From NCBI RefSeq assembly GCF_003334305.1, contig NZ_QOWS01000075.1: a stretch of DNA of 460 nucleotides; one strand, given 5' to 3'. This document shows positions 1-155 of this stretch, piece by piece; within the stretch, counting starts at the first letter, position 1; the number at the start of each line of letters is the position of its first letter. Below the pieces are notes generated by a model. That model had not been told where the DNA came from. It was given only the letters and a program-made list of their open reading frames with translations, and made no database searches. This DNA comes from Escherichia coli. Its GTDB lineage: Bacteria; Pseudomonadota; Gammaproteobacteria; Enterobacterales; Enterobacteriaceae. Made by a program: the position numbers and the translations under genes.

Positions 1-100
1 GTCGGTATCTGGTGACAAAGACCAGGTGAACATGCATCAGGAAAACACAATGCCTTCCACGCCGGATATCGGTTTCTTTTTTCACAGACCAAAGTATCAT
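1..100 (-). CDS. tnpA: IS200/IS605-family Y1 (HUH-type) transposase TnpA, N-terminal 33 codons; gene continues beyond window position 1
   Basis: Minus-strand ORF starting at ATG (plus coordinates 100-98) and open to the window edge. Translation: MILWSVKKETDIRRGRHCVFLMHVHLVFVTRYR. The segment H-L-V-F-V-T-R-Y-R matches the conserved N-terminal beta-strand motif of IS200-like TnpA (Y-H-[IL]-V-[FW]-x-[PT]-K-Y-R; Pfam Y1_Tnp family). An in-frame TGA lies upstream at 154-152 and ATG 100-98 is the first start codon after it. An alternative GTG start lies at 85-83. Only a weak SD-like CAGGT (108-104) precedes the ATG. Family assignment is by motif recognition, not database search. Confidence 0.8.
   Translation of the reverse strand, partial: MILWSVKKETDIRRGRHCVFLMHVHLVFVTRYR
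18..28 (+). repeat. 11-bp exact direct repeat AAGACCAGGTG, copy 1 (inside tnpA coding region)
   Basis: Identical 11-mer at 18-28 and 140-150. Contains a CCAGG (Dcm-type CCWGG) site. Confidence 0.6.
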
Positions 101-112
101 TTGACCTGTGAA
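81..112 (-). promoter_or_regulatory. Predicted RNA stem-loop (13-bp stem, 6-nt loop) enclosing the tnpA initiation codon and SD-like sequence; candidate translational-occlusion structure
   Basis: Minus-strand transcript 5'-UUCACAGGUCAAA-UGAUAC-UUUGGUCUGUGAA-3' (plus coordinates 112 to 81). All 13 stem positions pair: 11 Watson-Crick plus 2 adjacent G-U wobbles. The tnpA AUG (100-98) sits at the stem/loop junction and the SD-like CAGGU is in the 5' arm. On the plus strand the same two positions are A-C/C-A mismatches, so the structure is complete only as minus-strand RNA. Confidence 0.5.
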
Positions 113-155
113 ACGATTACAGGCATTTAAATTCCAGTTAAGACCAGGTGGTCAA
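101..155. promoter_or_regulatory. Candidate overlapping divergent promoters: TTGACC (101-106), palindromic AT-rich ATTTAAAT (125-132), GGTCAA (150-155)
   Basis: Two -35-like hexamers TTGACC (5/6 match to TTGACA) face each other on opposite strands, 18 and 17 bp from a central 8-bp palindrome ATTTAAAT that could serve as a weak -10 (TTTAAA, 4/6) in either direction. Pattern match only; the -10 is poor. Confidence 0.25.

Follow-up and report, generated by a model that had tools for sequence, protein, structure and literature searches.

The exact 11-base direct repeat in the tnpA and tnpB 5' regions of Escherichia coli IS609 is very probably a chance coincidence

The 11-mer AAGACCAGGTG is found exactly twice in the window, i.e. 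the whole 460-nt stretch of DNA analysed here, at positions 18-28 and 140-150 of the plus strand, in direct orientation and with a spacing of 122 bp. Our analyses indicate that this repeat is very probably (rough probability 0.93) a chance coincidence between unrelated coding sequences of the insertion sequence IS609. From the sequence facts, the non-conservation of the two sites and their separate histories, all of which are directly observed, we infer that the 11-mer would not act as a DNA or RNA signal.

The window corresponds to the centre of E. coli IS609, a member of the IS200/IS605 family; here tnpA is encoded by the minus strand and tnpB/insQ by the plus strand. All 460 nt match many E. 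coli chromosomes at 100% identity, and the window represents a copy of IS609 with no difference. Further hallmarks of the family, namely subterminal hairpin ends (LE/RE) lacking inverted terminal repeats and an omega-RNA at the 3' end of tnpB, belong to parts of the element beyond the window. At least 80% of the window is covered in 4981 of 5426 complete E. coli genomes, and 10518 IS609 places were counted altogether. In RefSeq, matching loci are labelled "IS200/IS605-like element IS609 family transposase" and "RNA-guided endonuclease InsQ/TnpB". TnpA matched the NCBIfam model NF033573 (transpos_IS200) with 143.3 bits for a cutoff of 55, identifying it as a Y1 (HUH) transposase, while the TnpB encoded beside it matched NF040570 (guided_TnpB) with 386.7 bits for a cutoff of 100. 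The tnpA translation in the window is MILWSVKKETDIRRGRHCVFLMHVHLVFVTRYR and that of tnpB begins VKRLQAFKFQLRPGGQQ. The main features are:

Positions 1 to 100, minus strand: 5' part of tnpA (IS200/IS605 Y1 transposase), leaving the window at its left end; RefSeq start ATG at 100..98.
Positions 108 to 460, plus strand: 5' part of tnpB/insQ (RNA-guided endonuclease TnpB), start GTG at 108-110, leaving the window at its right end.
Positions 18 to 28, read on the minus strand: copy 1 of AAGACCAGGTG, CAC CTG GTC TT, encoding His25-Leu26-Val27-Phe28 of TnpA in the first beta strand.
Positions 140 to 150, read on the plus strand: copy 2 of AAGACCAGGTG, (tt)A AGA CCA GGT G(gt), encoding Leu11-Arg12-Pro13-Gly14-Gly15 of TnpB.
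Positions 93 to 100, both strands: AGTATCAT (AGTATAAT in relatives), two overlapping back-to-back -10-like hexamers, outside the repeat.

The start codons of the divergent genes are separated by 7-22 nt in the window, depending on the tnpA start used. The tnpA start kept among relatives is equivalent to 85..83; it is GTG in the window and ATG in 49 of 62 relatives, and the tnpB start codon is likewise GTG in the window and ATG in 54 of 62. Divergent tnpA and tnpB genes define the IS605 type of organisation, exemplified by IS605 of Helicobacter pylori, in which a Y1 transposase and a TnpB diverge from a very short central spacer as they do in IS609. The H. pylori element is nevertheless a different one, and the likeness lies in gene organisation. 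One IS609 copy, at 2175-2600 of locus L001, lies between a yoaG-like DUF1869 gene and yeaQ; its tnpA carries a pseudogene annotation, with a truncation that removes the C-terminus, and its tnpB is intact. The same combination of a damaged tnpA and an intact insQ is observed in several other E. coli copies.

Direct sequence matching confirmed the exact 11-bp direct repeat that the initial annotation had reported at 18-28 and 140-150, and translation of both strands agreed with the context given for it there: the 5' regions of tnpA and tnpB, the HLVF and RPGG residues, and a Dcm site in each copy (CCAGG at 22-26 in copy 1 and at 144-148 in copy 2). Identity between the copies stops at 11 bases, the preceding base being A in one and T in the other and the following base A and G respectively. 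Attempts to extend the repeat with mismatches yielded nothing, and allowing a 3-nt gap added only 4 bases (AAC A), an extension that was dismissed. No third copy of AAGACCAGGTG was detected in the window at up to 2 mismatches. It had also been proposed that the rest of the element and its ends be searched; when this was done in the 5460 nt of L001, which comprise a complete element and its flanks, no further copy was found at up to 1 mismatch.

In order to evaluate how often such a repeat arises by chance, both shuffled and real DNA were considered. Mononucleotide shuffling of the window produced an exact direct 11-mer repeat in 1.7% of cases, in agreement with the chance rate of 0.02-0.03 first put forward. 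When the 91 loci compared here were divided into 602 windows of 460 bases without overlap, 46 (7.6%), including 3 from L001, were found to hold such a repeat. The rate at which short exact repeats occur in real coding DNA is here underestimated about four-fold by an expectation based on shuffling or on 4^-k (1.7% vs 7.6%). Simple pair counting predicts approximately one 8-mer match, or one 10-of-11 match, per 460-base window. Since 7.6% of real windows of this size carry an exact direct 11-mer repeat, finding one is an expected event in a genome-wide scan of thousands of windows.

Conservation was examined in 80 loci from other species, whose TnpB proteins are 59-94% identical to that of the window, together with ten further copies, some located on E. 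coli chromosomes and others on plasmids of E. coli, Providencia and Klebsiella. Orthologous codons were placed by tblastn. Counts for copy 1 refer to the 62 loci having tnpA and those for copy 2 to 91 loci; the sample is phylogenetically structured, and the counts compare states locus by locus. Two observations were made in passing on members of this set. Three loci contain another exact direct 11-mer (ACTGGCAAAGT / GCAAAGTAGCT) inside tnpA with a spacing of 213 nt (L012 at about 1126/1339, L015 at about 127/340 and L019 at about 1130/1343). Moreover, a 2057-nt contig of Streptomyces mutabilis (L013) carries an enterobacterial-type element whose TnpB is 82% identical to the query; it looks like contamination and not like a real actinobacterial copy.

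At copy 1, the HLVF residues are retained in 56 of 62 loci, while the exact nucleotides are found in only 7 of 62, every one of them E. coli IS609. The forms seen most often are AAGACCAAATG (23 loci) and AAGACCAAGTG (11 loci), and the K-12 copy has AAGAGCAGGTG. All synonymous positions of the site (20, 23, 25 and 26) are variable: position 20 is occupied by G, T, C or A, and the four synonymous states AA, AG, GA and GG are all seen at window positions 25-26. In the initial annotation, retention of the amino acids with loss of nucleotide identity had been named as the outcome that would indicate chance, and this is precisely what is observed at copy 1 (56/62 vs 7/62).

The result at copy 2 goes further, since here the protein sequence itself is not preserved: only 9 of 91 loci encode LRPGG, and 3 of 91 have the exact nucleotides. 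Elsewhere TnpB residue 14 is usually Asn, Asp or Thr, but also His or Lys, and codon 14 is AAT, AAC, GAC, GAT, ACC or the like in nearly all relatives at 59 to 93% TnpB identity. Codons 11-13 of tnpB are replaced by many synonymous or different codons in relatives, and the synonymous positions 140, 143, 146 and 149 are all variable. Polymorphism reaches into the species itself: in E. coli IS609 copies that are 97-99% identical, the third base of the Pro13 codon (position 146) is A or C. K-12, O157:H7 and other E. coli copies have CCC GGT, giving AAGACCCGGTG, and consequently lack the exact repeat. In a 30-mer census of the 10518 IS609 places, the A allele of copy 2 accounted for 3427 places and the C allele for 5128, and the copy-1 context was present at 6278 places. 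These numbers imply that no more than roughly one in three E. coli IS609 copies possesses the exact pair. Across relatives, no nucleotide conservation beyond coding need was detected.

The two sites have changed on different branches. In L082, from an E. coli IncI2 plasmid, copy 1 is AAGACCAGGTG and copy 2 is AAGACCAAATG; in L002, from Escherichia sp. MOD1-EC7003, copy 1 is AAGACCAAGTG and copy 2 is AAGACCCGGTG. Concerted change of the sites was not observed, mixed states being present in L002, L082, L011 and L005, and no mirrored change was ever seen for the Val codon GTA/GTG (position 20, copy 1) or for CCC (position 146, copy 2). Relatives whose TnpB is 59-66% identical show mismatches between the two sites at 4-7 of the 11 positions. 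A different exact pair, consisting of AAGACCAAATG twice with the same 122-bp spacing, was found in Klebsiella elements (L008 at 1410-1420 and 1532-1542, and L091), so that two separate lineages possess an exact 11/11 pair of differing sequence, AAGACCAGGTG in E. coli and AAGACCAAATG in Klebsiella. Taken alone, these two pairs look like covariation at positions 25-26 and 147-148. The Klebsiella pair nevertheless appears to be poor evidence for covariation, because each site, considered on its own, is most often AA and because every mixed state is represented, with AG/AA, GG/AA and AG/GG frequent.

Chance identity of the two sites very probably arose as follows. The sequence of copy 1 is dictated for the most part by the conserved TnpA strand H-L-V-F, encoded on the minus strand, and that of copy 2 by L-R-P-G-G, encoded on the plus strand close to the TnpB N-terminus. 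On the Enterobacterales branch the sites were probably alike by accident beforehand (AAGACCA..TG, 8+2 bases), a resemblance that would have appeared once TnpB residue 12 became an Arg encoded by AGA. In one E. coli IS609 sublineage, independent substitutions would then have made the sites identical. In tnpA the proposed substitution is the synonymous TTG>CTG (CTTGG>CCTGG on the minus strand); in tnpB, AAT(Asn)>GGT(Gly) is proposed, with CCA rather than CCC at Pro13. As the Klebsiella pair shows, exact identity drifts in and out over an old 8+2 resemblance.

Of the three readings first offered for the repeat, namely coincidence, a shared protein-binding site, and internal duplication or recombination, coincidence is the one favoured by the evidence; the other two are disfavoured by the non-conservation of the pair and by the lack of further copies. 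A contribution of the host to the substitutions themselves was also considered, as a cause acting alongside chance and not as its rival. Very-short-patch (VSP) repair acts on the T:G mismatch in CTWGG/CCWGG, with the net effect that Dcm sites are maintained (PMC2715241). In Dcm+ Escherichia it might have helped both copies reach CCAGG by converting CTWGG into CCWGG, a proposal that we regard as possible but rather doubtful. The change of copy 1 from CAC TTG GTC to CAC CTG GTC, which within the Enterobacterales set is restricted to Escherichia elements, fits such a bias, as do the homoplasy of the copy-1 state (G in L082, A in L002, G in E. coli) and the reverse-type CTAGG variant at copy 1 of L085. 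Copy 2 fits it less well: of the three substitutions needed there, one at most is of the appropriate type (AGT>GGT, via a Ser intermediate), and that Ser intermediate is seen in no relative compared. CTG is, moreover, present in distant non-enteric relatives as well. VSP repair may have favoured the TTG>CTG step in a Dcm+ host, where it would push sites toward CCWGG.

If the two 11-mers were instead paired sites for one protein, or sites sensitive to Dcm methylation, they might tune divergent tnpA/tnpB expression in the E. coli lineage only. The geometry is suggestive, with the divergent start codons enclosed by an exact pair at a spacing of 122 bp and a Dcm site in each copy, and the second exact pair in Klebsiella elements, although of another sequence, can be cited in the same sense. 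Identical short direct sequences flanking a divergent control region also recall the operators and iterons found in control regions of mobile elements. Unlike these, however, the IS609 repeat comprises two copies only, lies within coding sequence, is unconserved, shows no co-variation and is polymorphic within the species. The pair is not retained in relatives, it is polymorphic at a synonymous site within E. coli IS609, where the majority of copies have no exact pair, and the two copies change independently, as illustrated by L082 and L002. In addition, the element ends contain no third copy and neither copy is adjoined by a promoter consensus. We consider paired protein-binding or methylation-sensitive sites very unlikely. 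The more specific proposal that, in the E. coli sublineage with both copies, the Dcm-methylated 11-mers form a site pair through which a host protein or methylation control couples transposase and TnpB expression is scarcely credible.

The remaining possibility, that the repeat was left by a duplication within the element or by gene conversion over a short tract that copied one site onto the other, is highly improbable. It would account for the tnpB change AAT>GGT, which takes two substitutions, each raising identity to copy 1; but identity ends sharply at 11 bases between mismatched flanks, and the copies lie in different genes and are read on opposite strands, with neither similarity past the core nor a shared frame or strand. 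Furthermore, L002 combines tnpB GGT with tnpA TTG and L082 combines tnpA CTG with tnpB AAT; no single transfer accounts for these states. Homologous recombination in E. coli requires roughly 20-30 bp of identity, and the 8 bp available for gene conversion are far below this.

A -35-like GGTCAA beside copy 2 had also been pointed out in the initial annotation. Its minus-strand reading, TTGACC, does match TTGACA at 5 of 6 positions, but the consensus scan revealed no partner -10 element at 16-18 nt. In most relatives the hexamer is CTGACC, through a synonymous CAA/CAG change. Scanning the window with the promoter consensus yielded no sigma-70-type site on either strand. An Rfam scan gave only a sub-threshold chance match to a snoRNA model, and RNAalifold predicted no conserved RNA structure across the start regions of 17 relatives. 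Two structural candidates were examined and rejected. A terminator-like 7-bp hairpin at 105-123, around the tnpB GTG, is present in E. coli copies only and has its left arm in freely varying spacer; a 14-nt imperfect inverted repeat (80-93/100-113) spanning both starts is likewise present in E. coli copies only, with its right arm in variable spacer.

A different picture was obtained for the spacer between the start codons. Across 62 loci, 20-23 nt separate the tnpA start (the equivalent of 85..83) from that of tnpB. AGTATAAT is conserved within this spacer, while the 7 nt preceding the tnpB start are freely variable. In the window, -10-like hexamers are found on the plus strand at 95-100 (TATCAT/TATAAT) and on the minus strand at 98..93 (GATACT/TATACT), each ending 7 nt before a start codon. 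Among the 62 loci, such a hexamer ends 6-8 nt before the start on the tnpB side in 59, on the tnpA side in 54 and on both sides in 53. This arrangement suggests that the spacer could be a compact bidirectional promoter from which tnpA and tnpB would be transcribed as leaderless, or nearly leaderless, mRNAs. Symmetric bidirectional promoters carry overlapping -10 elements, and AGTATAAT resembles them in being -10-like on both strands with both readings conserved. The IS609 group would differ from them in that its hexamers end 6-8 nt before the start codons, implying leaderless mRNAs. No account of IS609 regulation was found in the literature on IS609, insQ/ydcM or leaderless tnpB.

In the window, the substitution A98C (TATAAT>TATCAT) weakens the -10-like hexamer and creates the in-frame ATG at 100..98. 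In some E. coli copies RefSeq begins tnpA at this ATG, and other near-identical copies are annotated from 85.

Together, these results indicate that an exact repeat can come and go within one IS family through drift over an accidental resemblance, and the verdict of chance disposes of a misleading lead in an element that is very common in E. coli. For the expression of tnpA and tnpB in this group of insertion sequences, the conserved back-to-back hexamers of the spacer are a more promising lead than the repeat.
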